From the NCBI GenBank assembly GCA_947625855.1, contig CANQPW010000003.1, positions 33 through 64,032 on the forward strand: 64,000 nucleotides of DNA, given 5' to 3'. Positions within the stretch are counted from its first letter, which is position 1. Each line of letters opens with the position of its first letter. The notes beneath the pieces were generated by a model, which was given only the letters and a program-made list of their open reading frames with translations, was not told the origin of the DNA and searched no databases. Origin of the DNA: an uncultured Clostridia bacterium (GTDB lineage Bacteria > Bacillota > Clostridia > TANB77 > CAG-465). The translations under genes were made by a program, and so were the position numbers. Shown here piece by piece: positions 20,626 through 43,780 of the stretch.

Positions 20626-20629
20626 TTTC

Positions 20630-22768: not shown

Positions 22769-22864
22769 AAAACTTCCTCCAACATAATGATATTTTACTA
22801 CAAATAATAAAAAAAATAAAGAAAAAAAGGACAAGTATTATAAACTCATCCTTTTTTTATTTAA

Positions 22865-25800
22865 TTACTGATTTTTAGTTTTTATCTTTAACTTTATTAC
22901 AGCTAAAATAATAACTCCAACAAACATTAAAGATAAACCTATTTTATAAAATCGAGATGTTCCAATAGCACCAGATGCTGGAAAACTAAATACTGATGTA
23001 TTTGGTAGTAATAATTCTACTCCATTTTTTACTACAAATGCTGGTGGTAAATTTTCTCCAAGTGCTGTTATATCTGGTACATTTTTTCCTGCTTCAAATA
23101 CTACCTTCCATTGTCCTTGTGGTTTTAATCTACCAAGTGCTGCTTTATCTTCTACAAGTCTATATTCTTCTCCTAATATTATTCCTTCAAATTTTACCTG
23201 TCCATCTATGTTATCTTCTCCACTTAATTTTTCTCCTACTTTTTCAAAGCATTCATTAATATTATTTGAATCTAATAACATATTATGGTCTTCATCTGTA
23301 TGATGTGTAGGATCTTTACATACTAGTCTATATAATGTAAACTTTGCTCCATTTAATGGATTTTCTTGATTTTCACTTTCTACTTTCTTAAATTCAAAAT
23401 CTACTAAACTTGATGCATTTATATATTCTACTAATTCATCATCATCTAACTTTCCACTCTCATTTGATGGTACTGTTGTAAAGTTATTTTTTCCTTCTTC
23501 TACTTCTTCTATTTTATACTCTAATCCTTTTGGTAAATTCTCTATTGTTATATTTTGTCCATGTTTTAATTTTACACTTCCAGTAGAACTTCCATCTTCA
23601 TTTTGTGTAAATTCTATTGTTCCATCCAGTGCAGGAGTCACATCATCTACAAAGCTTGACCCTTTATAATCATAGCTATCATATAACACTATATCACTTT
23701 CTGGTGTAAATGTTATTTCAAATGTCCAGTCTCTTTCTTTATCATCAGTTGTTCCAACAACTGTTTTTCTTAAATCTAATTTTACTAATTCCTGTGTAAA
23801 TTTATTTATATAATTTGCCTCATCTGTTAAACCTGCTTCTGTGATACCTGTAATTGTTCTTTCGTTTACTTCAAAATCATCATCTTCTCTTCCTGCTACA
23901 CTTACAAATTCAAATGCAGGATTTTGTATTTCATGTTCAGTAACTATATATGATGTTCCAGCACTTAATCCAGATACTAAAATTCCTTCACCATCTTTTA
24001 GTGTAAATGTTGCAGTAGCTGTATTAGTTGCATTGTCTATATTAAATTTTAGTTCTTTTATTCTCATATCAACTGTTAGTTTAAATAAAGGATCTGTATT
24101 ATCTTCATCTTTATATACTCGTATTAAATTTCCATCTGTTTTTTCAGGACCTGAATAAGCAGTTATTGTTCCATCACTATTAACTAATCTTTCTTTATAG
24201 CTATTTCCAACCCAATACACTGTTCTTTTACCATCTACATCAAGTATATATCCTTCATTATCCGTTATAACATAAGTTGTATCTGCCTCAGGAATCCATT
24301 GTGTACCATTCCAAATATATGTAAATACTATTGCTCTTTCATTTGCTATATCTCCAATTAATTTTAAATCAAATGTAAATTCTTCATTTTTTGCCTCTAA
24401 GAAATGATTTTTATCAACATTTGCTTCAACAGTTTTTGTTATAAATAACCATGTTTCTTGAACTGCTAATGCTCCATTATTTCCAAGATAAGTTATAATA
24501 CTATAATTTGAAGAATCAGCAGTAGTACCATATACAGGTGCATAATATAGTGTTGCTGTATCTGTTTCATTTTGAGATTTCAAATGTGAGTAACTTGTTA
24601 TATTTCCAACACGTTTTCCACCAACTTTTGTTGTTACTATTATACCTTCACCTGGTTCATCTACTTCAAGACGATTAGAAACATCATAATATGTTATATA
24701 TTTTTCATTATTTTCTCCAAAGAAGTCAGACCCTTTACATGATGCTGCATATTGAACTAATCTACCATCTGCCCCATCTGGTGTTTTCTCTCTTATATAA
24801 TAATCAATTGGAATATAATATGTATCATCCATATTTATTTCTTCCATAGTTTTTACTTCATCACTTAATTCGATTTCACCACCAGTTGATGTCATTTCTC
24901 CTTCTCCGCCTGAACTATTTTTATATATTTTTAGATTATTTTGAAATACATAAAATCTATTTTTCTTTGATGGTGAAAATGTTACTGATGGATTTCCAAA
25001 AGTATATCTTCTTCTGCTATCAAAATTTTCTCCACTATAATAATTTGAATAAAAGAATGACCATTCTTCACCATCTATATTTTTCAAATTTTTTAAGAAA
25101 TATTCTCTTGAAAGTCTACTTAAATCTATTTTTCCTGTACTTTTACTTATGATTTCATCAGATATTCCAACTGTATATGTAACTCTAAGTGGTAAACAAT
25201 ACTGAGTATCTGTATTTGTCTCATATCTTAATACTTTTTGAAACTCATCAACATCTATCATATCTAAGTGTATTGGAAGTGCAGAACTTGGAATATTAAT
25301 ATGCACTGCCTCACTATACAGTGAATCAATATCGTGTTCTTCATCAGTATCATAATTATCGCTATCTTCAACCCATATTCTTATATCACTCAGTTTATAT
25401 GTTATCTTAGAATCATCACCATAACTCATATTAACTCTTTCTATTGATCTGTCTTGTGTTGGTATATTTAGACGATAAAGAGTAAATACAACATTATTTA
25501 AAGCCTCATTAGACGACAAATATCCTTCCGGCAAAAATCCTTCTTGATCTTTATTACCATCAACATATTCTCGTGTAAGATAATATGTATCACCTGCAGC
25601 CCAGCTTCCTTCATCTCCTAAGTAATTTCCTTCACTATCATACCAACCATTGCCATGACCTTTCATATCAAAATTTGCATCATAAACAGCAGTTTTTACA
25701 ATTGGATAATTTTCTCCAAATAACAATAAATTAGTGATATCTTTTACTTCCATATATTTTCCAATAGGGTCTACATATGTTAGTGCATCTGTTACTCCAG

Positions 25801-27775: not shown

Positions 27776-27916
27776 AAAATCCCCTTAAAAATTATATAAA
27801 CGAATATAACTAATACTTAAATTTTTAATAGTATTAGCCTCTTATATATTCTTTTCATCTTACATTATTAACTTTACCATGTATTATACCCCTTAAAAAA
27901 AATACATTTCAATTTT

Positions 27917-27945
27917 ATATTACCACTACTTAAGAAAAAAATCAA
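27917..27945 (-). promoter_or_regulatory. Promoter of VWA paralog 1
   Basis: Minus strand TTGATT, 17 nt, TAATAT with TGg extended -10. The block is conserved upstream of paralog 2. A second candidate lies just downstream (TTGAAA, 18 nt, TATAAT at 27883-27912), so the true TSS is ambiguous. Confidence 0.5.
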
Positions 27946-27961
27946 TAAAATATACATAAAA

Positions 27962-27998
27962 ATATGATAGATTATCAAATTAACATAATCTATCATAT
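27962..27998 (-). terminator. Terminator of VWA paralog 2
   Basis: Perfect 14-bp inverted repeat ATATGATAGATTAT / ATAATCTATCATAT with a 9-nt loop, followed on the minus strand by TTTT. Located 10 nt after the stop codon. Confidence 0.6.
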
Positions 27999-28008
27999 TT
28001 TATATTTT

Positions 28009-31000
28009 TTACTGTTTTTCTGTCTTCATCTTTAATTTTATTACAGCCAAAATAACAACTCCAACAAACATTAAAGAAAGTCCTATTTTATAAAATAGAG
28101 ATGTTCCAATAGCACCAGATGATGGAAAACTAAATATTGATGTATTTGGTAGTAATAATTCTACTCCATTTTTAACTACAAATGCTGGTGGTAAATTTTC
28201 TCCAAGTGCTGTTATATCTGGTACATTTTTTCCTGCTTCAAATACTACCCTCCACTGTCCTTGTGGTTTTACTCTACCTAGTGTTGCTTTATCTTCTACA
28301 AGTCTATATTCTTCTCCTAATATTATTCCTTCAAATTTTACCTGTCCATCTATGTTATCTTCTCCACTTAATTTTTCTCCTACTTTTTCAAAGCATTCAT
28401 TAATATTATTTGAATCTAATAACATATTATGGTCTTCATCTGTATGATGTGTAGGATCTTTACATACTAGTCTATATAATGTAAACTTTGCTCCATTTAA
28501 TGGATTTTCTTGATTTTCACTTTCTACTTTCTTAAATTCAAAATCTACTAAACTTGATGCATTTATATATTCTACTAATTCATCATCATCTAACTTTCCA
28601 CTCTCATTTGATGGTACTGTTGTAAAGTTATTTTTTCCTTCTTCTACTTCTTCTATTTTATACTCTAATCCTTTTGGTAAATTCTCTATTGTTATATTTT
28701 GTCCATGTTTTAATTTTACACTTCCAGTAGAACTTCCATCTTCATTTTGTGTAAATTCTATTTTTCCATCCAGTGCAGGAGTCACATCATCTACAAAGCT
28801 TGACCCTTTATAATCATAACTATCATATAACACTATATCACTTTGTGGTATAAATGTTATTTTAAAAGTCCAGTCTCTTTTCTTATCCTCACTTGTTCCA
28901 ACAACTGTTTTTCTTAAATCTAATTTTACTAATTCTTGAGTAAATTTATTTACATAATTTGCCTCATCTGCTAAACCTGCTTCTGTAATACCTGTAATTG
29001 TTCTTTCGTTTACTTCAAAATCATCATCTTTTCTTCCTGTTACACTTACAAATTCAAATGCAGGATTTTGTGGCTCATGTTCAGTAACTACATATGATGT
29101 TCCAGCATTTAATCCAGATATTAAAATTCCCTCTCCATCTTTTAATGTAAATGTTGTTGTTACTATATTTGTACTCTTATCAACATTAAATTCAAGGTCT
29201 TTTATTTTCATATCAACAGTAATTTTATATAACGGTACTGTATTACTTAAATCGCTATATACACGTATTGTTTCAGATGTTTCCTTATCAGGGCCAGTAT
29301 ATGTAGTAATTGTTCCGTCTGAATTTATGGTTCTTGATTCTAAATCGTTTCCAACCCAATACTTTGTTCTCTTTCCATCTAAATCAAGTATATATCCTTC
29401 ATTATCCGTCACAACATACATATCCTCTGCTGCAGGTATCCATTTTGTTCCGTCCCATATATATGTAAATACTATTGCTCTTTCATTAGCTACATCACCT
29501 ATTAATTTTAAATCATATGTAAACTCCTCATTTTTTGCTTTTAAGAAATGATTTTTATCAACATTTGATTCAACAGTTTTTGTTATGAACAGCCATGTTT
29601 CTTGAACCGCTAATGCACCATTATTACCAAGGTAAGTTATAATACTATAATTTCCTTCCATATCTGCTACACTACCATATACAAGTGCATAATATAGTGT
29701 TGCTGTATCTGTTTCATTTTTTAATTTTAAATGTGAGTAATTTGTTATATTTCCAACACGTTTTCCACCAATTTTTGTCGCAACTACTATACCTTCACCT
29801 GGTGCATCCCCTTCTATATTTTCTGCTTCGTTATAATAAGTTATATATTTTTCACCATTATTTCCGAAAAAATCAGATCCTTTACAAGATACTGCATATT
29901 TTACTTTTCTGCCAATTGTACCATCAGAATTTTGACTAGGAATAAAATAATCTATTGTAAAATAATATGTTTCATCATCTATTATTTCATCAATACTTTT
30001 TACCTCATCACTTAGCTCAATACTACCTCCTGTTTCAACTACTTCACCTTCTCCACCAGAGCTATTTTTATATATCTTTAAATTATTTTGAAATACATAA
30101 AATCTATTTTCTGATGATGGTGAAAATGTTACTGAAGGATTTCCAAAAGTATATCTTCTTCTACTATCAAAATTTTCTCCACTATAATAATTTGAATAAA
30201 AATATGCCCATTCTTCTCCATCTTTTTCTTTTATATTATTTGTAAAATATTCTCTAGAAAGTCTACTTAAATCTATTTTTCCTGTTTTGCTATTTATTAT
30301 TTCATCAGTTATTCCAACAGTATACACAACTCTAAGTGGTAAAGCATAATCAGTTTCTGCATTTGTATTGTAGTTTATGACATTTGAAAATTCATCTATA
30401 TCTATTGAGCTTAAAAGAATTGGAAGTACATTTGTTGGTACATTAATATGTAATGCTTCCTCATAAAAAGAATCTTCATCATGTTCTTCATCAGTATTAT
30501 AATCTCCACTATCTTCAATCCATATTCTTATATCACTTAGTTTATATGTGACATCACTACTATTACCATAACTTGGATTATTTCTTATCATAGTTCTTTC
30601 ACTTTGAGCTAAATTTAGACGGTAAAGTGTAAATACTATATTATCTAATGCTTGTTTAGAGCTCAAATATCCCTCTGGTAAAAAACCTTCTTGAGTTTTT
30701 GAACCTTCAACATACTCACGTGTTAGATAATATGTATCACCTGCGTCCCAACTTCCTTCATCTCCTAAGAAGTTTCCCTCACTGTCATACCAACCATTTC
30801 CATTACCTTTCATATCAAAATTTGCGTCATATACACCAGTTTTAACTACTGGATAATTATTACCAAATAATAATAGATTAGTAACATCTTTTATTTCCAT
30901 ATATTTTCCAATAGGGTCTGTATAAGTTAAAGCATCTTTAATTCCCATATCATTATATCCCTCTATTGGTTTAAATGCTTCTCCTTCAATTTCGTATAAG

Positions 31001-32979
31001 ATTTTTCCAAGTTCTTCACTTATATTACTAGACATTACATCATAAAATCCATTGTTATATACCATATTATTTTTAACATCTTCATTTGTTATTGTGACAT
31101 CAAAAGTATCATTATATGATGCCTCTTCACTAATTGGTAACATATGTACTTTAACCTGAGCCGAATTCGTATTTGCCTCAGCATCTTGTCCATTTTTCCA
31201 TTTTTCCCAAGACGATATAAGTCCTTGATATATTGTTGCTTTAGTTATACCAAAACCATTTTGTAGTTCTGGTCCAAATAGTTCTTCATTATCCCACCAA
31301 TTTGGTATATCACTAAATAAATTATTTCCTGGGTCAACAATTGGATAAAGCCTAAGTTTTCCCCATTGTGGAATATGCTCAGCATCAATACTCATTGTAT
31401 ATGTTTTAGGGGAAATCCTAGATTCTTGAGTTGCCCCATTTTCTGTCCATCCTTGTTCATAATGCTTATCTACTGCTGTTTTCATATATGATGCTGTCAT
31501 TAAACATTGTAAAACTGCCCCTGATGTACCAAAAGTATCATTATCATTACTATAAAAAGCACCTGCATAATTCCACGCTGGAATACCTGTTAAAGATCCA
31601 TTTTCTTCTTCCATACCAGGATTATAAAGAGAAGTTATAGCATGAGTATCATTTATACCTGGCAAATATACTTTATACCATTCATCACCAACATTATCAT
31701 TTAAACGATGTGAAAAATCACGTAAATCCATAGTCCAACCTAATTCTGGTTGAGTATGGTCTATTGCTGAGTTATCATTACGATAGCCATCATAATATTC
31801 ACTATATACACCATAAAATCTATCCCAATCATCCATTTCATTAAAAGCAAAATTTGCTCCACCATCTGTCATTATAATTGTAGCAGGAATACGCGCAACA
31901 GTAGTATTCATACCATTAGGAAGAATTGTTGAAAATGTTGTTTTACTTTCCTGTGCCAGTTGTGCATATGCTAAATATATACCACCTTGTGTATTTGTAA
32001 GATAACCAATATATTCATCTGCTTCAATTTCATTTTTTTCTTCATTTACACCTAAAGATAAATTTTCATCTGTTTGCACTTTATATCCAGGATATGCTTT
32101 TACCTTAGTATTTTTAACATTATTACTAATTATTTTTGTATAAATATTATTATCTGAAAATGTTGGATTATCATTATCATCCCTATATGCTTCTGCTTTT
32201 ACTGCAAAACAAGCATCTATATTTCGCGTCCAAAGTAGACCATATTCTCCTTCATATCTAAGATCTGCAAGATTATATAACGTCTCAAAACCAACAATAC
32301 TTATATATGGTTTATCATCAATTTTTTTATAATGTGCAAGTGGCATTAAAACAGTAGCACCAGCACCATATGCTACTATGGCAACTCTATTATTTTTATT
32401 TTGTTTCATCAATTCATCAATAGTTTTATTAATCGCATCTATTGATACTTTCAAACGAGAATTCTCAATTCTTTCTTTCATCGTACGTCTTTCACTTGGC
32501 GCATAATCTCCAGTAAATGGTGCATTGAAATCATCAATATTATATCTTATATCCTGTGCCATTGACGCAGACATATCTATATTAATTACTAAATCTATTG
32601 GACTAGGTGGATATTGTTTTAAAACTTGAGATGAACCTAATGCAGAAAATACATGTAAGAAATCTTCATTAAAATCAATATTAAACCTATTATCTAGCGT
32701 AACCTCATTACTTTGTGAAGTGCCATCATGAGCATAAACGGATTTATCCGACCATACATATCCGTTATATCTACCACCATTTAGTGGATTTTCTAATAAA
32801 TCTTTATAACTATCAACTGTATTAGTATCTGCAATACGTAAAACATTCTCATCTGCAAGATCTGCATGTAATGCTGAATTATCATCATTCATGTCACTAG
32901 CAATATAAATTATTGTAAATGCAATGAGTAATACTAAACATATTGAAAAAACACTTAATCTATTAATTCTTTTTTTCAT
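28009..32979 (-). CDS. Giant VWA/MIDAS surface adhesin, paralog 2
   Basis: 1656 aa with the same architecture as paralog 1. MIDAS DLVINIDMSASM. The C-terminal ~1000 aa are highly similar to paralog 1. C-terminus LPNTS...FPSSG plus TM plus KLKMKTEKQ. Confidence 0.8.
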   Translation of the reverse strand: MKKRINRLSVFSICLVLLIAFTIIYIASDMNDDNSALHADLADENVLRIADTNTVDSYKDLLENPLNGGRYNGYVWSDKSVYAHDGTSQSNEVTLDNRFNIDFNEDFLHVFSALGSSQVLKQYPPSPIDLVINIDMSASMAQDIRYNIDDFNAPFTGDYAPSERRTMKERIENSRLKVSIDAINKTIDELMKQNKNNRVAIVAYGAGATVLMPLAHYKKIDDKPYISIVGFETLYNLADLRYEGEYGLLWTRNIDACFAVKAEAYRDDNDNPTFSDNNIYTKIISNNVKNTKVKAYPGYKVQTDENLSLGVNEEKNEIEADEYIGYLTNTQGGIYLAYAQLAQESKTTFSTILPNGMNTTVARIPATIIMTDGGANFAFNEMDDWDRFYGVYSEYYDGYRNDNSAIDHTQPELGWTMDLRDFSHRLNDNVGDEWYKVYLPGINDTHAITSLYNPGMEEENGSLTGIPAWNYAGAFYSNDNDTFGTSGAVLQCLMTASYMKTAVDKHYEQGWTENGATQESRISPKTYTMSIDAEHIPQWGKLRLYPIVDPGNNLFSDIPNWWDNEELFGPELQNGFGITKATIYQGLISSWEKWKNGQDAEANTNSAQVKVHMLPISEEASYNDTFDVTITNEDVKNNMVYNNGFYDVMSSNISEELGKILYEIEGEAFKPIEGYNDMGIKDALTYTDPIGKYMEIKDVTNLLLFGNNYPVVKTGVYDANFDMKGNGNGWYDSEGNFLGDEGSWDAGDTYYLTREYVEGSKTQEGFLPEGYLSSKQALDNIVFTLYRLNLAQSERTMIRNNPSYGNSSDVTYKLSDIRIWIEDSGDYNTDEEHDEDSFYEEALHINVPTNVLPILLSSIDIDEFSNVINYNTNAETDYALPLRVVYTVGITDEIINSKTGKIDLSRLSREYFTNNIKEKDGEEWAYFYSNYYSGENFDSRRRYTFGNPSVTFSPSSENRFYVFQNNLKIYKNSSGGEGEVVETGGSIELSDEVKSIDEIIDDETYYFTIDYFIPSQNSDGTIGRKVKYAVSCKGSDFFGNNGEKYITYYNEAENIEGDAPGEGIVVATKIGGKRVGNITNYSHLKLKNETDTATLYYALVYGSVADMEGNYSIITYLGNNGALAVQETWLFITKTVESNVDKNHFLKAKNEEFTYDLKLIGDVANERAIVFTYIWDGTKWIPAAEDMYVVTDNEGYILDLDGKRTKYWVGNDLESRTINSDGTITTYTGPDKETSETIRVYSDLSNTVPLYKITVDMKIKDLEFNVDKSTNIVTTTFTLKDGEGILISGLNAGTSYVVTEHEPQNPAFEFVSVTGRKDDDFEVNERTITGITEAGLADEANYVNKFTQELVKLDLRKTVVGTSEDKKRDWTFKITFIPQSDIVLYDSYDYKGSSFVDDVTPALDGKIEFTQNEDGSSTGSVKLKHGQNITIENLPKGLEYKIEEVEEGKNNFTTVPSNESGKLDDDELVEYINASSLVDFEFKKVESENQENPLNGAKFTLYRLVCKDPTHHTDEDHNMLLDSNNINECFEKVGEKLSGEDNIDGQVKFEGIILGEEYRLVEDKATLGRVKPQGQWRVVFEAGKNVPDITALGENLPPAFVVKNGVELLLPNTSIFSFPSSGAIGTSLFYKIGLSLMFVGVVILAVIKLKMKTEKQ

Positions 32980-33078
32980 ACTTTACCCCTTAAAAAACAA
33001 AAAATTTACTTAATTTACAATATCAACTTATAATTATATTGTTCATATTAATTATTATTATAAATTTATATGTATTTT

Positions 33079-33168
33079 TTAAGAGATTTTTTTGTTTAAA
33101 TAAATATCTGTGTGTGTGTGTGTGTGTGTGTGTAGTTTATTCACATTTTCGTGCAATATTGTTACCAT
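33079..33168 (-). CDS. Candidate 29-codon leader ORF containing the (CA)12 tract
   Basis: AAGGAGA (33178-33184), 9-nt spacer, ATG at 33168. Encodes MVTILHENVNKL(HT)4DIYLNKKIS, stop TAA at 33079-33081. Lies downstream of the predicted promoter. Too short for the ORF track; found by hand translation. Confidence 0.3.
   Translation of the reverse strand: MVTILHENVNKLHTHTHTHTDIYLNKKIS
33109..33132. repeat. (TG)12 / (CA)12 dinucleotide microsatellite
   Basis: Read directly: ctg(tg)11tag, giving 12 uninterrupted TG units. It is 130 nt upstream of the paralog 2 ATG. No comparable tract lies upstream of paralog 1. Confidence 0.97.
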
Positions 33169-33207
33169 AATATTCTATCTCCTTTTTAAACGTACTATTA
33201 TAATTTT

Positions 33208-33236
33208 ATATTACCATTACTAAGAAAAAAAATCAA
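33208..33236 (-). promoter_or_regulatory. Promoter of VWA paralog 2
   Basis: Minus strand TTGATT, 17 nt, TAATAT with TGg extended -10. Sits within a ~40-nt block nearly identical to 27911-27950. Confidence 0.55.
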
Positions 33237-33331
33237 TAAATAATGTCTAAAAATATGATTATATTTGTATAATAATATATTAATCACTATAATAATAAAG
33301 CAATAAATAAAAAATAATATCTACAAATATA

Positions 33332-33355
33332 CCCCAGTTGAACCATCAACTGGGG
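33332..33355 (-). terminator. Terminator of the 3432-aa adhesin gene
   Basis: Perfect GC-containing hairpin CCCCAGTTGA-acca-TCAACTGGGG, 10 nt after the stop codon. The minus strand continues TATATTTGT. Confidence 0.7.
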
Positions 33356-33365
33356 TTATTAGTGA

Positions 33366-36300
33366 TTATTTAATTTTTTGCTTTTTAGATTTTTTTATTA
33401 AAACTATTGAGAAAATTACAAATAATATACTACAAATTGAAGTTAATATATATTTTGTTATATTAATATCTGATGTATCTACATTACCAACATTAACATA
33501 TATCTTTTCATTTTCTATATCTATGTATATATTTTCTGTTACTTTACCTGATATTTGTTTTTCATTAACCTTATTTATTTTTGTAACATAATCTTCTGCA
33601 TTTAATTCACTTATTTCATAATCAAAGTTTTCAGGTACTTTATATATTAATATTGTTTGATTATTTGATATTTTTATAACACCTTCACCAGATACTATTT
33701 TTCCTTCAGATACAACTTCATCTTTTTCATTTAGTATCTCATAATCTAAGTCTTCTGTGTAATTACCTAATTCATTAGTAATTTTTACACTTATTTCAAA
33801 TTGTTCATTTAAGTCCTCTTCTTTTGCTTTTAATTTTTTTGTTATATAAATATCAGGTTTATATTCATATATATAACTTACAATAACAGTATTTTCCTCT
33901 ATAATTCCACTTGCATTTTCTGGAACACTAACTAAATAATAATTTTCAAATTCTTTATATTCAGTTTCATATTCATCGCCTAATAATACATCTTCAATTA
34001 CAATATCATCTATAATTTTTGTACCATCAGTTTTCTCATATTTTACAATAATTCTTGCCTTTATTCTTTGAAATTCTACTTGCACATGTATATTTTCTTT
34101 TACAGATTTAAACTTATCTAATACATATGGTAATGATCTATCATCTGGTAATTCTTGTTCTACACCATTTACAAGTATTTTTGATATTTCAAAATATTGG
34201 TCTGGTACTATTTCAATATCTTCTACACTATCTTTTCCATATTCTACATATTCATATACATCATCATATTGTCCTGATATAGTACCATTTTCTGATAAAA
34301 CTTCTGTTGTAATTTCAAATTTTCTTAAACAAAATTCAACTGAAATTTCATAATCTTGATATATATTTTCAATTTTTGGCAATGTATAAGGTGAAATTCT
34401 ATCATCTGGTAAAGCTTGTTCTTCACCATTTATTGTAATTTTTGATATCTCATATCCTGTATCAGGTGTTATAACTACATCACTTGTTTGAGAATATCCT
34501 AAAACTACTCTTTCTACATATTCTTCATCTTGTGCAGTTATTGTACCGCCTTCACCATTTACTTTTGTTGTAATTTTATATGTTATTATACTATTTTTTA
34601 CAGTTACATCATTTTCATTTTTGGTTACTTCAGAATCATATATATCTATATCTTGTTCTTCAACGCTATAATCTATTTTACTACCATTAGCATTTTTAAA
34701 CAAATTATCAATTGTTTTCTTGTAATCTTCATTTTTTAATAATTCAACATTTTCCATAAAGATATTTCCATCTAAATATACATTTACATATATTGTATCT
34801 GGTCTATATCCTTCAAAACCTTCATCAACAAATTCTTTTGTAATATTTAGGGATATTTTTTCAACTTCATGTGAATTTGTTACATTAAATGTTTTTGCAT
34901 CACTATCATATATAATATCTGATGTATAACCATTTGGTACTTGTTCTTCTAAAGTATAATTTATTTCATTTCCAGCCTCATATTTATCTAAATCAGATAT
35001 TGTTATACTGTTACTATCTAGTATAATATTATCATTTACTACTTTATCACCATTTTTCAAAGTAAATTTTACAGTTTTTGGTCTTATTCCATCTCTATTA
35101 TCATCATCTTGCCATATTTTGTTTATTATTACATATGTTTTTTCAATTTCATGTTTATTTTTTAATGTAAATGTATTAGTTGCATCATCAAAGTCTTTAC
35201 TCTCAAGTGTATAATCTGTCAATTCATTTTCTAATACATCATATATAATAGCCTCTCCACCATTTTCATATACATATACTTCATCAAATGATGCACTAAA
35301 CTCATTTTCTGCATCTAATGTTTTCTTTTGTATTTCTCTACCATTTGATGTTAATGTTACTTCAACACTTTCTGGTCTTTTTCCATCCTGATTGTTATTA
35401 TCATTCCATTCTTTCTTTACAGAAATTACTTTCTTTTGAGGTGTATATGTATTTGTTGCCTTAAATGTTTTTGTATCACTGTTATACTCAATTTTAGATG
35501 TATATTTTTCTGATAATTCTACTTCTTCAACTATATAATTTATCTCAACACCATCTGAATTTTTATCTAAATCTGTTATAGTTATTGCCCAACCATTTTC
35601 CTCATTTAATATAACATTGTCCTTTACAACTTCACCGTCTCTTTTTATTACAAAATATGCATTTTCTGGTCTTATTCCATCTCTGTCATCTTCATCTTGC
35701 CATGTTTTTGTAATTATTATTTCTGCCTTTTCAATTTCATGTTTATTTTTTAGTGTAAATGTATTTGTTTCATTATCAAAATCTTTACTTTCAAGTGTAT
35801 AATATGATATTTCATTTTCTGATACATCATAGGAAATAGGCTCTCCACCATTTTCATATACATATACTTCATCAAATGATGCAGTAAAGTTATTTTCTTT
35901 ATTTAAAGTTATTTTTTGTCCTTCTGCATTATTTGCAAGTAAAGTTACTTCAATACTTTCTGGTCTTCTTCTGTCTTGATCTTCATTATCAATCCATTCT
36001 TTTCTTACAGAAATTACCTTTTTCTTAGGCTCATATGTATTTGTTACATTAAATGTTTTTGTATTACTATCATATTTAATATCTGATGTATATTCATCTG
36101 GTGTATCTTCTTCCAAAGTATAATTTATTTCATTTCCAGCCTCATATTTATCTAAATAATATATTGTTGTACTATTATTACTTGAAGAATCTAATATAAT
36201 GTTATCTTCTACTACTTTTTCTCCATTTTTTAATGTGAATTTTATAGTTTCTGGTCTTATACCATCTCTGTCATTTTCATCATCCCAAACTTTTGATATA

Positions 36301-39300
36301 GTCCTTTCTGTTTTTTCTATATCATGTTTGTTTGTTATAACAAAGGTATTAGTATCATCTTCAAAATGTTTATCTTCAAGTGTATATTCTGCTATATCAT
36401 TTTCTGATACATCATAAGAAATAGGTTCTCCATCTTCATTTACAAAAACTTCTTCAAAACTACCACTCCAAGAATTATCATTATTAAGTGTTATAGTCTG
36501 TAATATATTTCCTTTTGATGTTAAATTTACTTCAACACTTCCTGGTCTTTTTCCATCTTGATTTTCGTTATCGTCCCATTCTTTTCTTACAGAAATTACC
36601 TTTTTCTTAGGCTCATATGTATTTGTTATAGTATAAGTCTGTGTTTCTTCACTATATTGTGTATCAGATGTATATTCACCTGGTTTTTCTTCTTCTAATG
36701 TGTATACTATTTGTGTTTGTGCTTCATATTTATCCAAATTAGATATTGTTGTTGACCAACCATTTGCATCACTTAATACAATATCATCTTTTAATACAGT
36801 ATCATTTTTCTTTAGTACAAAATTTAAACTTTCTGGTCTTATACCATCTCTATTATTATCATCTTGCCATATTTTTGTTATTGTTCTTGACACTTTTTCA
36901 ATCTCATGTTTATTTGTTATAGTATATGTATTAGTTACCTCATCAAAATTTTTACTCTCAAGTGTATAATCTGTTATTTCATTTTCTGATACATCATATG
37001 TAATAGGGCTTCCACCATTTTCATATACATATACTTCATCAAATGATGCACTCCACTCATTTTCTGCATTTAAAGTTCTCTTTTGTGCTTCTTCACCATT
37101 TGAAGTTAATGTTACTTCAACGCTTTCTGGTCTTTTTCCATCTTGATTTTCGTTATCATTCCATTCTTTCTTTACAGAAATTACCTTCTTTTCAGGTGTA
37201 TATGTATTTGTTACGTTATATGTTTTTGTATCAGCATCATATTCTATATTAGATGTATATTTTTCTGATATTTCTTTTTCTTCAACTGTATAATTTATCT
37301 CTACGCCATTTGAATTTTTATCTAAATCTGATATAGTTGTTGTCCAACCATTTGTACTATTTAATACAATATTATCTTTTACAATTTCACCGTCTTTTTT
37401 TATTACAAAATATGCATTTGCTGGTCTTAGGCCATCTCTGTTTTCCTCATCTTGCCATATTTTTGTAATTGTTATCTCAGCTTTTTGTACTTCATAATTA
37501 TTAGTTATTGTATAAGTATGATTTTCATCGTTATATTCTATATCTTCTTTTAGATATCCTGGTACAGCTTCTTCTTCAACGCTATAATTAAGCTTTGTAC
37601 CAGCCTCATATACTGGAACTTCTCTAAATCTATCATGCCATCCATTTTCTTCATTTAATGTTAAAGTTTGTTCTACTTTACCATTTAACATTAAATTTAC
37701 TTTTACAGACTCTGGTCTTACTCTATCCTGATTTTCTTTATCATTCCATTTTTTTACAACAAGTATTGTTTTAGTTTCAGGTGTATGCTCATTTTCTAAG
37801 ATGAATTCTCCTCTTCTTATCTCTATTACATTAGGTGTATATCCTTCAACGTCATTTTCTGAAATAGTATATGTAATAGGAGCTTTATTTTCATATTCAA
37901 ATTCATCACTGAAAGTATATTTCCAAGCGTTTCCATCATTTAGCTCTACACTTTTGTATGTTTCACCATTTTTTAGTAAATTAATTGTTACGCTACCTTT
38001 TCTTTTGCCATCTTGATTATCATTATCTTTCCACTCTTTTGTAACAGTTATATTTCTTTTACTTGGTGTATGTGTATTAGTTATAGTAAATGTCTTTGTT
38101 CCATCATCATATACTGTATCAGATGTATAACCATCTTGTTCAATTTCTGATACTTCATAAACTATTTTCTCTTTATCTTTATACACATCTAAATCAGTTA
38201 TTGTTTTTGACCAACCATTAGCATCATTTAATACTATATCATCTTCTACTATATCTTCACCATTTTTTAATGATACTCTTACATTTCTTGGTCTTAATCC
38301 ATCTCTATTGTCATCATCTTGCCATACTTTTGTTATTGTTATATCAGTTTTTTCAATCTCATGTTTATTTGTTATAGTATATGTATCTGTTTCATCATTA
38401 TATATTTTACTTTCTTGGAAATAATCATTAAATCCTTGCTCATTTACATCATAAGATACTTTTTCTCCTGCGTTATATGCAAACACCTCATCAAATGAAC
38501 CAGCCCAACCATTTGCTTCATTTAAAGTAATTCTTTGAACCTCACCATCATTTGAAGTTAAAATCATTGTCACATCTTGTGGTCTTTTTCCATCCTGATC
38601 AAAATTATCATTCCATTCTTTCTTTACAGAAATTACTCTTTTTTCAGGAGTATGTGTATTAGTTACAACAAAAACATCATTTTCATCTTTTGTTACTGTA
38701 TAGGTATAACCGGCTATATCGTTTTCAGTTATTGTATAGTCAATAGGTGTACCATTTTCATTTACATTTACATTATCAAATGTATGTTGCCATCCATTTC
38801 CATCGTCTAATACAGCAGATTGAACTACTCTTCCATTAGCACATAAATTCAAAGTTACATTTTCTGGTCTTTTTCCATCTTGGTCATTTTCATCATTCCA
38901 CTCTTTTCTTACTGAAACACTAGTTTTTTGTGGAACATAAGTATTTGTTACTATATAAGTACGTTGGAATTCTTCATTTTCTCCTTTTTTTAATTGTATA
39001 TCAACATCATAATTTTCTTTTGCAACTCTAAATTCTTCGCCTAAATCTACTTCTTTTACTTCATATACATATTCTTCCATTTGGTCATTGTATTTTTCAA
39101 CAAATGGCCATACATATTTCCAACCAGTATCAGCAGTTAATTCAACTAATCCTACATTTGTATCCCCAACCATATATGGTGCTCCATCTGCATAAAGTTG
39201 AACTTCTATTCTTTCAGGTCTTATTCCATCAGCATCATTTTCATCATTCCATACTTTTTCAACTGATACTTGTACTTCTGGTGGATAACAGTTATATATA

Positions 39301-42300
39301 TCTAATTTATTTTGATTATATATTACTCCATATCCAGCTGGAACAACAGTCTCTTCTACTGTCCACGAAATTTCATTACCATCTTCATATACGTATAAAT
39401 CATTAAAAGTATATTCCCATTCATCACTATTTCCATTTGAATTAGAAGCATTTAGTGTAATTTCATCACTATATCTTTCACCATTTTTTAGTAAAACAAA
39501 AGTTATACTATCAGGTCTTGTGCTATCACTATTACTTCCATCTCTCCATATTTTTGTTACAGTCTTATTTGTTCTTAATGGTGTATGTTTATTCTTGAAA
39601 GTATATATATTACTTGCTTCTTCAAAATTTTTACTTTCTTGTTCATAATCTGTAATATCTACTTCTTCTACATCATATGTAATTTCATCTCCGCCCTCAT
39701 ATACAGGTAAATCTTCAAATACAAAAGTATATGAATTTGATTGATTTAACATACAACTTTTTAGATATTCTCCATTTTTAGATAATTTTATCTCTAAATC
39801 TTGTGGTCTTTTTCCATCTCTATTGTTATCATCATCCCACTCTTTTATAACAGTTATATTTTTAGTTAGTGGTGTATGAGTATTAGTTAATGTCCAATTA
39901 TTTGTTCCCTCATCATTTACTTTACTTGTTAAATTATATTCATTAACTTCTCTTTCTTCTATCTCATAATTTATTTCTATTTGTGTATTAGGTTCGTATT
40001 TATCAACATCTATACTTGTAGTCCATCCATTATCATTATTTAGCTCTACTGTATATGCTACTTCATCTCCATTTTTTATATCACAAATAACATTAACTGG
40101 TCTTTTTCCATCTTGATTGCTTGCATCATCCCAGATTTTTGTAATATTTATTTTCTTTGTTTCAACCCATTTTGCATAAAGATTTGTATTTTTAGTAATT
40201 GGTGTTTCAAAGTCGAATTTTTCATCATTTTCCCTATTATACCAACCATCAAATCTAAATCCTTCTTTTGTTGGATCAGAAGGTTTATGTGCAAGTTTTC
40301 CATGACTTACTAGTTCTAAGTATAAATTATCTCCTTCTTTGCTATAATACATACTTTCATCAGTAAAATCACCATCTTCTGTATCATAATATACATCGTA
40401 TATTATATTTTTAAAATATAGATCTATTGTAGCTGTTCCCTCAGTAGATACTATAACCATTAAAACAGAGCTTTTTTCACTATCAAATTCATGACCTACA
40501 TATAATGGACTTTCCTCTGATAAATATTCATAATAATCAGTAGCATATATATATTTTCCTACTGAATCTTCACCTTCTGCTTTAAAATCTGGAGATTCTG
40601 GATATGTTCCATCATCTTGCATAAAGTAATAATTTATTTTATAATCTCCTTTTCTTTCAACAGGTGAATAATAGAAATATATAACATTAACAAGTTCGTT
40701 GTCTCTATCACTTGTAAGTACCATCATTTTTTTGTATGCGTCAACTTCATAACCATCTATTTCTATGCTTTCTTCTACGACCATGAAAATATCTTCATAA
40801 GTATCTTGCTCAATTACATTTCCAGGTCTTTTAAATTCTCCCTCTTTGCTATCATGTAATATAACATCTGGTGATGGAACCTCACCATTTTCATATACTT
40901 TTCCTGTATTTTCAACATAATATACTATATATTTCATATTTGGTTGTGGAGTATAGAAAAAGTATAGTATATTTTCATCAGGATTTGTAGAAATTTCTAG
41001 GTTTTTCTCATAACGGTCTACAAAGTACATATTTTGTAATGCACCTTCTAGCACAAGTACTGCATCTTCTGTAACAACTGTTCCATATTTTACATTAGTT
41101 ACTACCTTTTCATCTTGTAGATAATCACTTTCACTATAACTTGCAGGATCTTTTATTAAATTTCCATCATCATCATATTTTGCAAGCACATATCTTACTC
41201 TATACGTTCCTTCTTGTCTTGCTTCCCAAACTGCATCAAGTTGTAAATCTTTATATACTTTCTGTGAATCACTAAATAAGTATTCAACATATTCTCCTAA
41301 ATCATTTGTATAATACCAACCTTTAAATGTATAACCATCTCTTGTAGGTTGAGGTGACGGTTTCTTTAAAAGACTTCCAGAATTTACAACTGTTTTATAC
41401 TTTCCATCTTCAAGTGTATATCCTGTATTACCTCCAACACCTGCTCTCCATCTTCCATTTTTAGTATCAAATACTGCATCATGTTTTGGTACTATCCAAT
41501 TAGCATATATAACTAAGTTTTGATCCATTGTAGTATAAGTTGAGTCTTCCCATGGAAATTCTGTTCTAAACGCTGCATCTAAATACCATTTATCAAAAGG
41601 TCTTATTTCACCTTCTTGAGTAATTAATGGATATTGCAATTTATTATCTTCATCATTTTCCATTGCTTCTTGAATAGTTAAAAGATCAGAAATACTTGCT
41701 CCATATTTTAAAACTAAATGCTTTTTACCATCTGTAAGAGTCCTAATATAATACCCTTTATTATTTAATGGCTGTATTATATCCTCACTTGGAACATAAT
41801 CATTTACTATATTATTTAATGTAAGCTCATATTCTATTCTATCGTAATAGAAATAGATATCTGCTGCGCTATCACGTGTTGTGCCTCCTTGACCATCTTG
41901 ACCATTCCAAGCTTTATATACATTTGTAACACCCCAAATATTTGGTGGGTTCATTCCAGATTTTGTAGATGTTGCAACAACTATATAGTTATATACATCA
42001 TCATATTTTTTTCCATCATGAGTATATTCTGCATCAGCTGACTGATCTAACATATCATAAAGTATATGGAATTTAAAATATCTTGGTGATGTACTCCAGT
42101 ATCCATACATTTCGTGTACTTGACTTGGATCATCAGCATTTATAATCAAATCTGATGACATTGTATAGTACCTACCTTGAATATTATGATTTGTATTATT
42201 ATGCCAATAAGGTGAGCTACTGTTTGTTCCCCAAGTCATAAAATAATATGTTGTATTTGAATGAGTTACATCACTTATATATTCAGGTGAAGGCCAAAGT

Positions 42301-43664
42301 GTTGATATATCTTGGTTATACTTTGCTTTTATCTGATAATCAGCATTAGTATAAGTGTTATTATTTATTGTTATTGTAGCTGCTGAATCAACTGTTTGCC
42401 ATGAACATGCTGACTCACTTCCACCTGTTGCAAGAGCAATTTGATTATTTCTATTACTATATCTTCCGACCATAAATCTTATAGTATATTCTTTTCTATC
42501 GTAATATACATTTACGTTTGTAGTACCATCACCTTTTACATATACATCATAGTTGCTTCTACTTCTATCTCTATCATATTGAAAGAATTGCTTTTCATCA
42601 GGTTTTAAAATTAACATTCCTTTTGCAATTTCTTCTTCAAAACGAGTTGTATCAAAATCACTTACTAAACTTCCTGTTGGAGCGCCATTTATTACATATG
42701 TACCAACATTTGTATAGTTGTTGTTATTAGCATTTTCAAGGAAATACACAACTGTAAAAGATGTAGTTGAAGCCTCATAAACTGCTTTAAAATAAACATC
42801 TTCATTTGGCATAGTTTCAGGTGTATCAACAACTATTTCATCCCCATCATCAGTTGTTTGTATGCAGTTCCATTTTGTGAATGTATATCCTGCCTTTTCA
42901 GGTGTATAATTTTGTAAATAACTTTGAATATTTGCAGTATATGGAACAGCCAAAGGCTCATAATATGTTCCACCATCAGAATCTAAATACATATATGGTT
43001 GATTTAAATCATAGTATATTTCTAATTTTGTTTTACCATCTCCACTAACAACAGCAGATAACTTTGATCTTTCTGTATTTATTGTATATCCTTCTTTTTC
43101 TTGTGCTTTAACACTTACTTTATCTCCAATATATACATCCTCTGTATATTCTACTTCACTTTCTGTATCATAAGATGTTAAGTCACTTGCTTTTTGAAGA
43201 TAAGTTACGACTTTATAACTTGACAAAGAAGGTGTATAAGATACGGTATAATAAATTTTATACACATTGTTAAATCCTGATTGTTTTTCTACTTTTACAT
43301 AGTCAAGTTTGTTTACTCTTTCAACAAATGCTGAATCAGTAAACTCATTTATACTATCTATATTTGAGGTAAAACCATCAAATTGCTTTATAGTAAGATT
43401 TATATCCTCATTTTCCCCAAAGCAATAAACATCTTTACTGTCTGCAATTTCACCTGTTCTATCATACATATATTTTATTGTTACTATATACATAGTTTGG
43501 TCTACATCAGTTATAGTAGAGCCAGCAGCAACTTTTCTACCATTAAGGCCAAAATTACTAAATCCCATAATTACTGATATAACCAATCCTATAATAAAAA
43601 ACACTAACAAATGTGAAAAAAGACTATGTCTTCTTCTTTTTGTTTTACTTCCTTTAATTTTCAT
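33366..43664 (-). CDS. 3432-aa multi-repeat surface adhesin (MucBP-like and GW/GY beta-repeat N-terminal region, ~19 Cna-B-type domains, C-terminal membrane anchor)
   Basis: Signal/anchor MKIKGSKTKRRRHS plus TM. Listeria-Bacteroides-type repeats (GYTFTKWN, DGYTFKGWYY, EGFRFDGWYN...LYAKW). 19 copies of the K-x-W-x-D-x(2-3)-N/D-x-D-G-x-R-P signature. Two ~85-aa tandem modules, a MucBP-like module (RIIVKYEKTDG...VSYIYE), then TM plus KKSKKQKIK. Confidence 0.8.
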   Translation of the reverse strand: MKIKGSKTKRRRHSLFSHLLVFFIIGLVISVIMGFSNFGLNGRKVAAGSTITDVDQTMYIVTIKYMYDRTGEIADSKDVYCFGENEDINLTIKQFDGFTSNIDSINEFTDSAFVERVNKLDYVKVEKQSGFNNVYKIYYTVSYTPSLSSYKVVTYLQKASDLTSYDTESEVEYTEDVYIGDKVSVKAQEKEGYTINTERSKLSAVVSGDGKTKLEIYYDLNQPYMYLDSDGGTYYEPLAVPYTANIQSYLQNYTPEKAGYTFTKWNCIQTTDDGDEIVVDTPETMPNEDVYFKAVYEASTTSFTVVYFLENANNNNYTNVGTYVINGAPTGSLVSDFDTTRFEEEIAKGMLILKPDEKQFFQYDRDRSRSNYDVYVKGDGTTNVNVYYDRKEYTIRFMVGRYSNRNNQIALATGGSESACSWQTVDSAATITINNNTYTNADYQIKAKYNQDISTLWPSPEYISDVTHSNTTYYFMTWGTNSSSPYWHNNTNHNIQGRYYTMSSDLIINADDPSQVHEMYGYWSTSPRYFKFHILYDMLDQSADAEYTHDGKKYDDVYNYIVVATSTKSGMNPPNIWGVTNVYKAWNGQDGQGGTTRDSAADIYFYYDRIEYELTLNNIVNDYVPSEDIIQPLNNKGYYIRTLTDGKKHLVLKYGASISDLLTIQEAMENDEDNKLQYPLITQEGEIRPFDKWYLDAAFRTEFPWEDSTYTTMDQNLVIYANWIVPKHDAVFDTKNGRWRAGVGGNTGYTLEDGKYKTVVNSGSLLKKPSPQPTRDGYTFKGWYYTNDLGEYVEYLFSDSQKVYKDLQLDAVWEARQEGTYRVRYVLAKYDDDGNLIKDPASYSESDYLQDEKVVTNVKYGTVVTEDAVLVLEGALQNMYFVDRYEKNLEISTNPDENILYFFYTPQPNMKYIVYYVENTGKVYENGEVPSPDVILHDSKEGEFKRPGNVIEQDTYEDIFMVVEESIEIDGYEVDAYKKMMVLTSDRDNELVNVIYFYYSPVERKGDYKINYYFMQDDGTYPESPDFKAEGEDSVGKYIYATDYYEYLSEESPLYVGHEFDSEKSSVLMVIVSTEGTATIDLYFKNIIYDVYYDTEDGDFTDESMYYSKEGDNLYLELVSHGKLAHKPSDPTKEGFRFDGWYNRENDEKFDFETPITKNTNLYAKWVETKKINITKIWDDASNQDGKRPVNVICDIKNGDEVAYTVELNNDNGWTTSIDVDKYEPNTQIEINYEIEEREVNEYNLTSKVNDEGTNNWTLTNTHTPLTKNITVIKEWDDDNNRDGKRPQDLEIKLSKNGEYLKSCMLNQSNSYTFVFEDLPVYEGGDEITYDVEEVDITDYEQESKNFEEASNIYTFKNKHTPLRTNKTVTKIWRDGSNSDSTRPDSITFVLLKNGERYSDEITLNASNSNGNSDEWEYTFNDLYVYEDGNEISWTVEETVVPAGYGVIYNQNKLDIYNCYPPEVQVSVEKVWNDENDADGIRPERIEVQLYADGAPYMVGDTNVGLVELTADTGWKYVWPFVEKYNDQMEEYVYEVKEVDLGEEFRVAKENYDVDIQLKKGENEEFQRTYIVTNTYVPQKTSVSVRKEWNDENDQDGKRPENVTLNLCANGRVVQSAVLDDGNGWQHTFDNVNVNENGTPIDYTITENDIAGYTYTVTKDENDVFVVTNTHTPEKRVISVKKEWNDNFDQDGKRPQDVTMILTSNDGEVQRITLNEANGWAGSFDEVFAYNAGEKVSYDVNEQGFNDYFQESKIYNDETDTYTITNKHEIEKTDITITKVWQDDDNRDGLRPRNVRVSLKNGEDIVEDDIVLNDANGWSKTITDLDVYKDKEKIVYEVSEIEQDGYTSDTVYDDGTKTFTITNTHTPSKRNITVTKEWKDNDNQDGKRKGSVTINLLKNGETYKSVELNDGNAWKYTFSDEFEYENKAPITYTISENDVEGYTPNVIEIRRGEFILENEHTPETKTILVVKKWNDKENQDRVRPESVKVNLMLNGKVEQTLTLNEENGWHDRFREVPVYEAGTKLNYSVEEEAVPGYLKEDIEYNDENHTYTITNNYEVQKAEITITKIWQDEENRDGLRPANAYFVIKKDGEIVKDNIVLNSTNGWTTTISDLDKNSNGVEINYTVEEKEISEKYTSNIEYDADTKTYNVTNTYTPEKKVISVKKEWNDNENQDGKRPESVEVTLTSNGEEAQKRTLNAENEWSASFDEVYVYENGGSPITYDVSENEITDYTLESKNFDEVTNTYTITNKHEIEKVSRTITKIWQDDNNRDGIRPESLNFVLKKNDTVLKDDIVLSDANGWSTTISNLDKYEAQTQIVYTLEEEKPGEYTSDTQYSEETQTYTITNTYEPKKKVISVRKEWDDNENQDGKRPGSVEVNLTSKGNILQTITLNNDNSWSGSFEEVFVNEDGEPISYDVSENDIAEYTLEDKHFEDDTNTFVITNKHDIEKTERTISKVWDDENDRDGIRPETIKFTLKNGEKVVEDNIILDSSSNNSTTIYYLDKYEAGNEINYTLEEDTPDEYTSDIKYDSNTKTFNVTNTYEPKKKVISVRKEWIDNEDQDRRRPESIEVTLLANNAEGQKITLNKENNFTASFDEVYVYENGGEPISYDVSENEISYYTLESKDFDNETNTFTLKNKHEIEKAEIIITKTWQDEDDRDGIRPENAYFVIKRDGEVVKDNVILNEENGWAITITDLDKNSDGVEINYIVEEVELSEKYTSKIEYNSDTKTFKATNTYTPQKKVISVKKEWNDNNNQDGKRPESVEVTLTSNGREIQKKTLDAENEFSASFDEVYVYENGGEAIIYDVLENELTDYTLESKDFDDATNTFTLKNKHEIEKTYVIINKIWQDDDNRDGIRPKTVKFTLKNGDKVVNDNIILDSNSITISDLDKYEAGNEINYTLEEQVPNGYTSDIIYDSDAKTFNVTNSHEVEKISLNITKEFVDEGFEGYRPDTIYVNVYLDGNIFMENVELLKNEDYKKTIDNLFKNANGSKIDYSVEEQDIDIYDSEVTKNENDVTVKNSIITYKITTKVNGEGGTITAQDEEYVERVVLGYSQTSDVVITPDTGYEISKITINGEEQALPDDRISPYTLPKIENIYQDYEISVEFCLRKFEITTEVLSENGTISGQYDDVYEYVEYGKDSVEDIEIVPDQYFEISKILVNGVEQELPDDRSLPYVLDKFKSVKENIHVQVEFQRIKARIIVKYEKTDGTKIIDDIVIEDVLLGDEYETEYKEFENYYLVSVPENASGIIEENTVIVSYIYEYKPDIYITKKLKAKEEDLNEQFEISVKITNELGNYTEDLDYEILNEKDEVVSEGKIVSGEGVIKISNNQTILIYKVPENFDYEISELNAEDYVTKINKVNEKQISGKVTENIYIDIENEKIYVNVGNVDTSDINITKYILTSICSILFVIFSIVLIKKSKKQKIK
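34590..40165 (-). repeat. Intragenic tandem array of ~19 Cna-B-type domain repeats (~290 bp each; a two-domain ~585-bp period in the distal half)
   Basis: The xTKxWxDxxNxDGxRP signature recurs at ~290-bp spacing. A-type units recur at ~38300, 37445, 36860, 36275, 35690 and 35105, alternating with B-type units (VxKEWNDNxNQDGKRPESV). Boundaries are approximate. Confidence 0.75.
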
Positions 43665-43705
43665 ATAATCACCAATATATTCACTTAAAAATATAATTCC
43701 ATTCT

Positions 43706-43734: not shown

Positions 43735-43780
43735 AGAAAAATGGCATATTTTTTAATATTTTTTTATATTTTCAAGAAAT

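Follow-up and report, generated by a model that had tools for sequence, protein, structure and literature searches.

Three adjacent genes for large surface proteins, here named adh1, adh2 and adh3, lie between the core genes recJ and relA in a 64,000-nucleotide stretch of DNA (the window) from an uncultured Clostridia bacterium, and they form an accessory insertion at a junction where the two core genes are close neighbours in most relatives. The block is not self-contained: judged from its sequence, it is the adhesin half of a pilus system whose other half, a major pilin gene and two class C sortase genes, occupies the next variable slot downstream, between ung and queA. The explanation that we favour, and consider probable, is a lineage-specific accessory insertion into an ancestrally adjacent recJ-relA pair, with both halves derived from one module that was split by rearrangement and that functions in pilus formation. 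The window is nearly all of one contig (C3) of the focal genome (G000), which comprises 1.31 Mb in 73 contigs, is 98% complete and has a GC content of about 26%; the species is represented by this one assembly, a metagenome-assembled genome (MAG).

The layout of the block (Table 1) matches exactly what an earlier reading of the same DNA (the original prediction) had described, namely three consecutive open reading frames (ORFs) on the minus strand between relA and recJ, and the Pfam domains of the flanking genes agree with their names. The coding bases of the three genes add up to 20,181, or 31.5% of the window and 1.6% of the genome, close to the one third of the window that had been claimed. 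A signal peptide had been proposed for each protein as well, and in all three N-termini, as judged by eye from the sequence, a K/R-rich start is followed by a hydrophobic stretch.

The recJ-relA junction in related genomes

The synteny comparison of the recJ-relA interval that had been suggested with the original prediction covered 48 congeners and 16 genomes from other families of the order, each with both flanking genes, together with two unclassified MAGs (G066 and G067). The gap between recJ and relA is only about 23-170 bp in 31 of the 48 congeners; 13 others have 0.66-5.0 kb of other genes between the two, and in the remaining four the genes are on different contigs. Adjacency extends beyond the genus, to 10 of the 16 genomes from other families (111-286 bp) and to both unclassified MAGs (about 210 bp). 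The nearest relatives of the focal genome are G003 and G065, with recJ 80-81% identical to that of the window and relA about 80% (81% in G003), and the recJ-relA spacer of G003 is 146 bp. The block is absent from the site in all 48 congeners, and the 20.8 kb of the focal genome is the largest contiguous fill of this interval. The block is therefore an accessory insertion, as had been proposed, with recJ and relA as neighbours in the lineage and no orthologues at the site in relatives.

The description of the junction as normally tight stands for 31 congeners but not for the 13 whose junctions hold at least nine different cargo sets between them. These cargoes include a nitroreductase gene with a GDPD gene, an MBL-like gene with or without a HipA-like gene, MFS transporters, Ham1-like genes, recG with a GT4 glycosyltransferase and a sortase, and a PDDEXK_2 gene. 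The recJ-relA junction is ancestrally tight, yet it is a recurrent hotspot of gene gain in the genus and is poor in mobile elements.

As a baseline, the original prediction had used the arrangement of Bacillus subtilis and many other Bacillota, in which recJ, apt, relA and dtd are immediate neighbours. This order does not apply to the genus, whose members instead have recJ-relA-MBL-(hypothetical gene)-ung. It was correctly noted that apt and dtd are not in the window, but they have not been displaced from it, for neither gene is present in the whole focal genome and neither is ever found between recJ and relA in the genus. In congeners dtd was found in 1 of 24 genomes and apt, above the cut-off, in 9 of 24, while 15 of the 16 genomes from other families have dtd, with relA and dtd kept adjacent in one family (f3). 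Because both genes are missing genome-wide, and in congeners are not at the site, their absence is unrelated to the block; it reflects genome reduction in the genus and not insertion. In reduced Clostridia, a missing apt or dtd beside relA should not be taken as displacement.

Shared ancestry of the adhesin and pilin-sortase halves

Genes related to those of the block are sparse in the genus and lie elsewhere in the genome wherever they occur: adh1-like genes are present in 3 of 49 congeners (32-40% identity) and genes resembling adh3 in their N-terminal regions in 6 of 49 (46-50% identity). A sample of 151 other genomes of the order contained no adh3-like N-terminal region. The best matches to adh1 among 5.8 billion proteins are 45-51% identical. 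A protein-pattern scan of species-representative genomes with adh1 alone gave no close homologues, and a scan of these genomes with a seven-sequence alignment gave 32 loci (L035-L066). No link to recJ, relA, ung or queA was seen in the context of the nearest adhesin homologues.

What the homologous loci do have in common is their own organization. In all eight that are informative (G005, G006, G063, L018, L020 (two MAGs of another lineage), L022, L023 and L038) the adhesin gene is followed, contiguously, by a pilin gene and one or two class C sortase genes. The nearest of them, L022, is 58% identical to the window in the adhesin stalk, 50% in the pilin and 59% in the sortase (srt1), and the head of adh2 is 66% identical to the adhesins of L021 and of the contiguous operon L022. 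L018, L020, L023 and L038 follow with 43-46% for the stalk, 40-45% for the pilin and 56-64% for the sortases, and the congeners (L015-L017) come last with 32-33%, 28-30% and 31-41%. Relatives are thus ranked alike by adhesin stalk, pilin and sortases, and from this common ranking both halves in the window can be traced to a single adhesin-pilin-sortase-sortase module.

The predicted major pilin of the second half contains GramPos_pilinBB, SpaA and Gram_pos_anchor domains; its motifs are LPVTG and an E-box (YYLREKKAPEGY), and it also has a transmembrane (TM) segment and a KKKK tail. The two sortases score 262.8 bits (16132-16995) and 214.9 bits (15450-16142) against the class C model, for which the cut-off is 160, and DPF lid motifs are legible in both sequences. 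These genes are 4.2 kb downstream of the adhesin genes, from which they are parted by relA, the MBL gene, a hypothetical gene and ung (18840-22768) and by terminators. The order relA-MBL-147-aa membrane protein-ung also occurs in G003, G065, G011, G012, G020 and others. The ung-queA slot is itself variable: it measures 125 bp in G055, other genomes have 1.2-3.1 kb of differing genes there, and the window has nothing in it but the pilin and sortase genes.

Table 1. Coordinates of the adhesin genes, their transcription signals and flanking genes, and the pilin and sortase genes
Feature	Position in window	Strand	Details
adh1	22865-27775	minus	1636 aa ORF
adh2	28009-32979	minus	1656 aa ORF
adh3	33366-43664	minus	3432 aa ORF
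recJ, upstream core flank	43781-45478	minus	Pfam DHH, DHHA1, RecJ_OB
relA (long RelA/SpoT homologue, RSH), downstream core flank	20630-22768	minus	Pfam HD_4, RelA_SpoT, TGS, ACT
adh3 terminator hairpin	33331-33356	minus	11-bp stem with 6 GC pairs; -23.2 kcal/mol, z -5.5
adh2 terminator	27953-28005	minus	AT-rich 21-bp hairpin, then U tract; -18.6 kcal/mol, z -6.0
adh1 terminator hairpin	22822-22858	minus	15-bp stem; -16.3 kcal/mol, z -5.3
recJ-to-adhesin spacer, 116 bp	43665-43780	minus	promoter-like TTGAAA-17-TGgTATAAC ahead of adh3
(CA/TG)12 microsatellite in adh2 leader	33109-33133		Tandem Repeats Finder, 12.5 copies, 100% match
MBL-fold hydrolase, 147-aa membrane protein and ung	18840-20625	minus	Pfam
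Major (backbone) pilin, 537 aa	17011-18624	minus	NF033902 SpaH/EbpB, 125.8 bits (cut-off 95)
Two overlapping class C (pilus-polymerising) sortase genes	15450-16995 (16132-16995, 15450-16142)	minus	NF033745 class_C_sortase
queA, core gene bounding second variable slot	14254-15279	minus	Pfam Queuosine_synth

Predicted structure of the adhesins

The products of adh1 and adh2 have the same predicted architecture, in which a signal-like N-terminus is followed by a VWA head with a DxSxS motif, a conserved core of about 500 residues that matched no Pfam family, a stalk of DUF5979, DUF7601 and SpaA domains, and finally FP(A/S)SG, a hydrophobic segment and a basic tail. The head of adh1 scores 39.1 bits for VWA_2 (cut-off 27) and has the sequence DVSSS, of the DxSxS type; DUF7601 and SpaA were matched in Pfam, and the sorting signal is FPASG. 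In adh2 the VWA-like head scores only 18 bits for VWA_2 and carries DMSAS, a DxSxS motif of the metal ion-dependent adhesion site (MIDAS) type, DUF5979, DUF7601 and SpaA were matched, and the sorting signal is FPSSG, followed by a TM segment and KMK. Among the five nearest homologues, four keep the FPxSG element in the form [FIL]PxSG and one (P0005) has LPNLG; an upstream LPNTS sequence is not conserved. Identity between adh1 and adh2 is about 65% in the leader, less than 25% in the head, about 80% in the stalk and about 100% over the last 200 or so residues. The two are tandem, head-swapped paralogs of a family of predicted VWA tip adhesins, and adh2 is a candidate pilus-tip adhesin.

The (CA/TG)12 tract in the leader of adh2 is uninterrupted and lies within a small upstream ORF with a good ribosome-binding site (MVTILHENVNKLHTHTHTHTHTDIYLNKKIS). 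The leader of adh1 has no such tract. A possible role for the tract is that of a contingency locus.

The product of adh3 is of another kind. Its N-terminal side comprises a signal or anchor and then about 1100 residues that include three Listeria-Bacteroides repeats (Flg_new), its stalk matches Cna_B in 19 stretches (1024 bits), and the protein is completed by MucBP, DUF7601 and, at the C-terminus, a TM segment and a tail rich in K; we class it as a predicted fibrillar adhesin. The C-terminus reads ...VNVGNVDTSDINITKY, then the TM segment, then KKSKKQKIK. In four congener homologues the aligned position is an EY[SIV][AS]PTG sorting motif; in this C-terminal alignment adh3 has neither an LPXTG-type sortase signal nor the [AS]PTG motif of its homologues. 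The operons to which the congener homologues belong also encode a signal peptidase, an APTG pilin, a sortase and a minor pilin, and a search of the focal genome for these partner genes found none of them. With both the motif and its usual partners lost, adh3 probably relies on its C-terminal membrane anchor for attachment. The replacement at this site (33366-33560) is a segment seven residues longer, VNVGNVDTSD, with the TM segment and basic tail kept. As an adhesin-only block, the three genes are a composite of two adhesin systems, which is an uncommon feature.

Transcription signals and point of insertion

Each of the three genes had been credited with its own hairpin terminator, and this is well supported: hairpins follow the three stop codons within a few bases, their z scores range from -5.3 to -6.0, and in 200 shuffles no fold of equal stability was obtained. 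No hairpin was found behind the stop codon of recJ. The claim that each gene has its own promoter-like element holds in so far as suitable hexamers precede every gene, but such matches are not above chance in this 26% GC DNA, in which 132 consensus promoter matches were found against 147.8 +/- 12.4 expected. Besides the element ahead of adh3 they include TTGAAA-18-TATAAT at 27912-27883 and TTGATT-17-TGgTAATAT, which is common to the paralogs adh1 and adh2. A comparison of the four spacers among themselves and against the entire window revealed homology between the leaders of adh1 and adh2 alone, and the pilin leader showed no link to the adhesin genes.

The start of relA is the ATG at 22768, which has GGAGG in front of it. 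A TTG-extended relA ORF that reaches 22834 is probably spurious, because relatives begin to align at residue 1-7 of the ATG form. The terminator of adh1 sits directly upstream of the promoter-like segment of relA, in which the motif TTTGTAGTA(A/C)AATA is common to the window and the G003 spacer. Since this relA-proximal segment of the G003 spacer has been retained in the window, the insertion took place between the recJ stop codon and that element.

Mobility genes and composition

The original prediction had found no integrase, transposase, tRNA or flanking direct repeat, and we obtained the same result. No window ORF has a Pfam match to an integrase, transposase, recombinase or conjugation gene, ARAGORN reported no tRNA in the window, no Rfam family was matched in 14000-47000, and no direct repeat of 12 nt or more is common to the two block boundaries. 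The spacers of the block are 96-386 bp long. The focal genome does contain comEC, which encodes a DNA-uptake channel.

Composition was scanned, as had been suggested together with the prediction. The GC content of the three genes is 0.28-0.30, compared with 0.26 for the genome. Their GC content at third codon positions (GC3, 0.10-0.11 compared with 0.12 +/- 0.04) and their synonymous codon usage (z 0.3-0.9) are both native, and their tetranucleotide distances fall in the 82nd-99th percentile, a deviation that tracks GC at first and second codon positions, that is, amino-acid content. Four-fold sites of all flanking genes are 53-63% identical to those of G003 and are saturated. The split from the nearest known relative is thus old and amelioration is to be expected, so that native codon usage, and the scans in general, are uninformative about a foreign origin.

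Proposed origin of the block and alternative explanations

Under the explanation that we favour, the donor would have been another low-GC gut Clostridia lineage, and entry without a mobile element would most likely have occurred by a double crossover in flanking core genes or by illegitimate recombination. A local rearrangement, for example a tandem duplication with reciprocal loss, could then have put relA, MBL, the hypothetical gene and ung between the halves, and tandem duplication, head replacement and gene conversion may have followed. In the assembled structure, adh1 and adh2, most likely exported by Sec, would be captured by the two class C sortases through the FP(A/S)SG sorting signal and joined to the tip of an LPVTG major-pilin polymer, giving pili with two alternative binding heads. 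The lack of mobility machinery, the promiscuous junction and the presence of comEC match published hotspots without mobile elements. The acquisition of accessory pilus or adhesin genes at a hotspot of that sort is a well-known kind of event; a single pilus module split across two adjacent hotspots is uncommon.

Several observations weigh against this explanation. None of the three adhesins has a canonical sorting motif and the major pilin has no canonical YPKN pilin motif in its sequence, and for these reasons pilus assembly is a step that we infer. Composition neither dates nor sources the event, GC3 and codon z scores being native and four-fold sites saturated. The sliding identity of recJ and relA to G003 and G065 shows no clear donor-like segment at the boundaries, the fast-evolving N-terminus of relA being the sole part with extra divergence, and the spacers yielded neither a pseudogene fragment nor a repeat nor any other remnant of a rearrangement. 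The missing remnant would be accounted for if the adhesins had entered recJ-relA and the pilin-sortase cassette had entered ung-queA in two independent gains, with no later rearrangement needed. The two slots each vary independently in relatives, and stand-alone adhesins of the wider family without an adjacent pilin or sortase match do exist (L040, L043 and L044). We nevertheless find two gains rather doubtful, since both halves rank relatives alike at comparable divergence and the eight nearest informative loci are contiguous, so that two captures would require the same or very similar donors.

That the block was instead brought in by an integrative and conjugative element, a transposon or a phage-like carrier whose integrase or transposase was later deleted is unlikely. 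Enough time has passed since the split from the nearest relative for such genes to have disappeared, and a gene of a PD-(D/E)XK "transposase" family (143.8 bits) occupies the same slot in G065, with one copy elsewhere in the focal genome. Against such a degraded element, neither an integrase, a transposase or a tRNA nor an att-like repeat or pseudogene remnant is present in the window, the spacers measure only 96-386 bp, and the cargoes of the 13 congeners are also mostly without mobility genes. The PD-(D/E)XK (Rpn-like) nuclease, whose gene stands in the slot of the sister-clade genome G065, can also be named as one candidate driver of a scarless integration, of a kind not yet recognized, that would target both the recJ-relA and the ung-queA junctions. 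This idea is speculative and we give it little credence. If true, it could explain why the junction is occupied or disrupted by unrelated, integrase-free cargo in 17 of the 48 congeners, and why the parts of a single pilus module now lie on either side of a housekeeping block of four genes.

It is very improbable that the block was ancestral in the genus and has been lost from relatives, as this would demand many precise deletions restoring spacers of 23-80 bp in 31 congeners, and further deletions in other families, where the module occupies other loci. The module may all the same be old in the order, because its divergence from MAGs of other families (46% identity for the stalk, 57-59% for the sortases) is about that of relA (45%); and with G000 as outgroup to G003 and G065, one loss could explain that clade. 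Just as improbable is a chimeric MAG contig in which the adhesin genes were wrongly joined to recJ and relA. The genome is indeed a 73-contig MAG with other Cna_B genes at contig ends, and the paralogs have a near-identical block of roughly 480 nt where their last 200 or so residues agree. An artefact would, however, require four separate junctions all to be wrong, although the sequence at each is unique and its layout of terminator and promoter is intact; the genes agree with the genome in GC3 and codon usage, and the adh2-adh1 join is reproduced by contigs from three other samples at 98-99.9% identity. Insertion of one module with subsequent splitting remains the explanation that we prefer.

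Comparison with known systems

Sortase-assembled pili with a VWA tip adhesin include the Ebp pili of Enterococcus faecalis and the SpaA-type pili of Corynebacterium diphtheriae, as well as the SpaCBA and RrgA types. The genes of the window resemble those of such pili in encoding a large predicted VWA protein with a MIDAS-like DxSxS motif and a SpaA/DUF7601 stalk, a major pilin that has both LPXTG and an E-box, and class C sortases of their own. They differ in that the tip-adhesin genes are 4.2 kb from the pilin and sortases, with relA, MBL, a hypothetical gene and ung between them, in that there are two alternative tip genes (about 1640 aa) with FP(A/S)SG instead of LPXTG, and in the absence from the window of a base pilin gene and a YPKN pilin motif. 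Large VWA pilins are found at pilus tips, and the usual place of the class C sortase genes is within the same cluster (PMC3708956). The locus is an example of a sortase-pilus module whose adhesin and assembly genes are physically uncoupled, and in annotation such tip adhesins may be missed when only sortase-contiguous genes are considered.

The predicted protein adh3 is comparable to fibrillar adhesins of the Cna/MSCRAMM type in having a Cna_B stalk (19), an N-terminal non-repeat region, MucBP, a hydrophobic anchor and a basic tail; unlike them it has no LPXTG-like motif, and its congener homologues end in EY[SIV][AS]PTG within partner-gene operons. Streptococcal pilus islands (the rlrA islet, PI-1/PI-2 and FCT) are contiguous and often bounded by insertion sequence elements or repeats. 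As in these islands, the pilus and adhesin genes of the window are accessory, patchy in distribution and placed between core genes, but the locus is split and no mobility gene or repeat was seen in it. The block shares its sporadic distribution with the classical mobile-element genomic island, from which it differs in having no mobility genes, tRNA target, repeats or atypical codon use.

Hotspots without mobile elements, which diversify by recombination at flanking core genes, have been documented (Oliveira et al. 2017, PMC5635113). The recJ-relA junction is like them in that the same core genes bound the interval in relatives, the accessory content differs by species, there is no integrase or transposase, and comEC is present. 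It is unlike them in that we compared not strains but species, in a genus whose synonymous divergence is saturated, and in that one functional module extends over two adjacent hotspots. While hotspot insertion of pilus and adhesin genes is in itself well known, the window is a clear case from nature in which genes were gained at a core-gene junction and no mobile-element signature is seen.

Habitat

The matches to the VWA adhesin family in species-representative genomes are almost all from rabbit-gut "Lapin" MAGs, with GC contents of 0.26-0.64, and span Clostridia, Bacilli, Oscillospiraceae, Eggerthellaceae and Atopobiaceae. This suggests a habitat-linked spread of the family across phyla. Because almost all homologues come from "Lapin" MAGs of several classes, the habitat of the bacterium appears to be the rabbit gut. 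A single adhesion system takes up 24 kb, or about 1.8%, of this reduced gut genome of 1.31 Mb, which suggests strong selection for attachment in this habitat.

Other features of the window and of related junctions

In G065 the recJ-relA slot (L067, G065:C13, 5528-6388) holds the PD-(D/E)XK nuclease gene (PF12784) alone, in a gap of 1.4 kb, and the one copy of this family in the focal genome is on contig C25. The gap of G021 (L010, G021:C27, 5670-6470) consists of two tandem units of about 400 bp, each with a near-consensus TTGACA-17-TATAAT promoter, about 200 conserved nucleotides without an ORF, and a terminator with a GC stem. No Rfam family was matched in this gap, and the units are possibly novel small RNA genes. 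The small gaps of G021 and G018 were considered as deletion scars of the island and rejected, as they have no similarity to it, that of G018 being a small MBL-like gene. In G014 (L012/L025, G014:C55, 3165-5680) the genes that come after recJ encode an SH3-like protein, a secreted protein of 219 aa that by eye looked TasA-like, and a signal-peptidase-like protein, and relA is on another contig; these may be another surface-structure cargo at the recJ-relA slot.

The ung protein (18840-19502) is 94.5% identical to that of G003 and 88-93% identical to those of six other congeners in which relA is 62-78% identical, and G011 and G012 carry a variant of 73-75% identity. A role for ung as a recombination anchor was considered and rejected: its four-fold sites are 63% identical, compared with 53-57% for its neighbours, and are equally saturated, which indicates purifying selection and not recent transfer. 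Between queA and tgt (11094-14241) are genes for an ABC ATPase and for an ABC-2 permease fused to a CPBP (Rce1-like) protease. As queA and tgt are directly adjacent in the congener G055, this interval is a third lineage-variable slot in the stretch. At the start of the window, a gene of the choloylglycine (bile salt) hydrolase family at 63-1037 (355 bits) fits a gut habitat.

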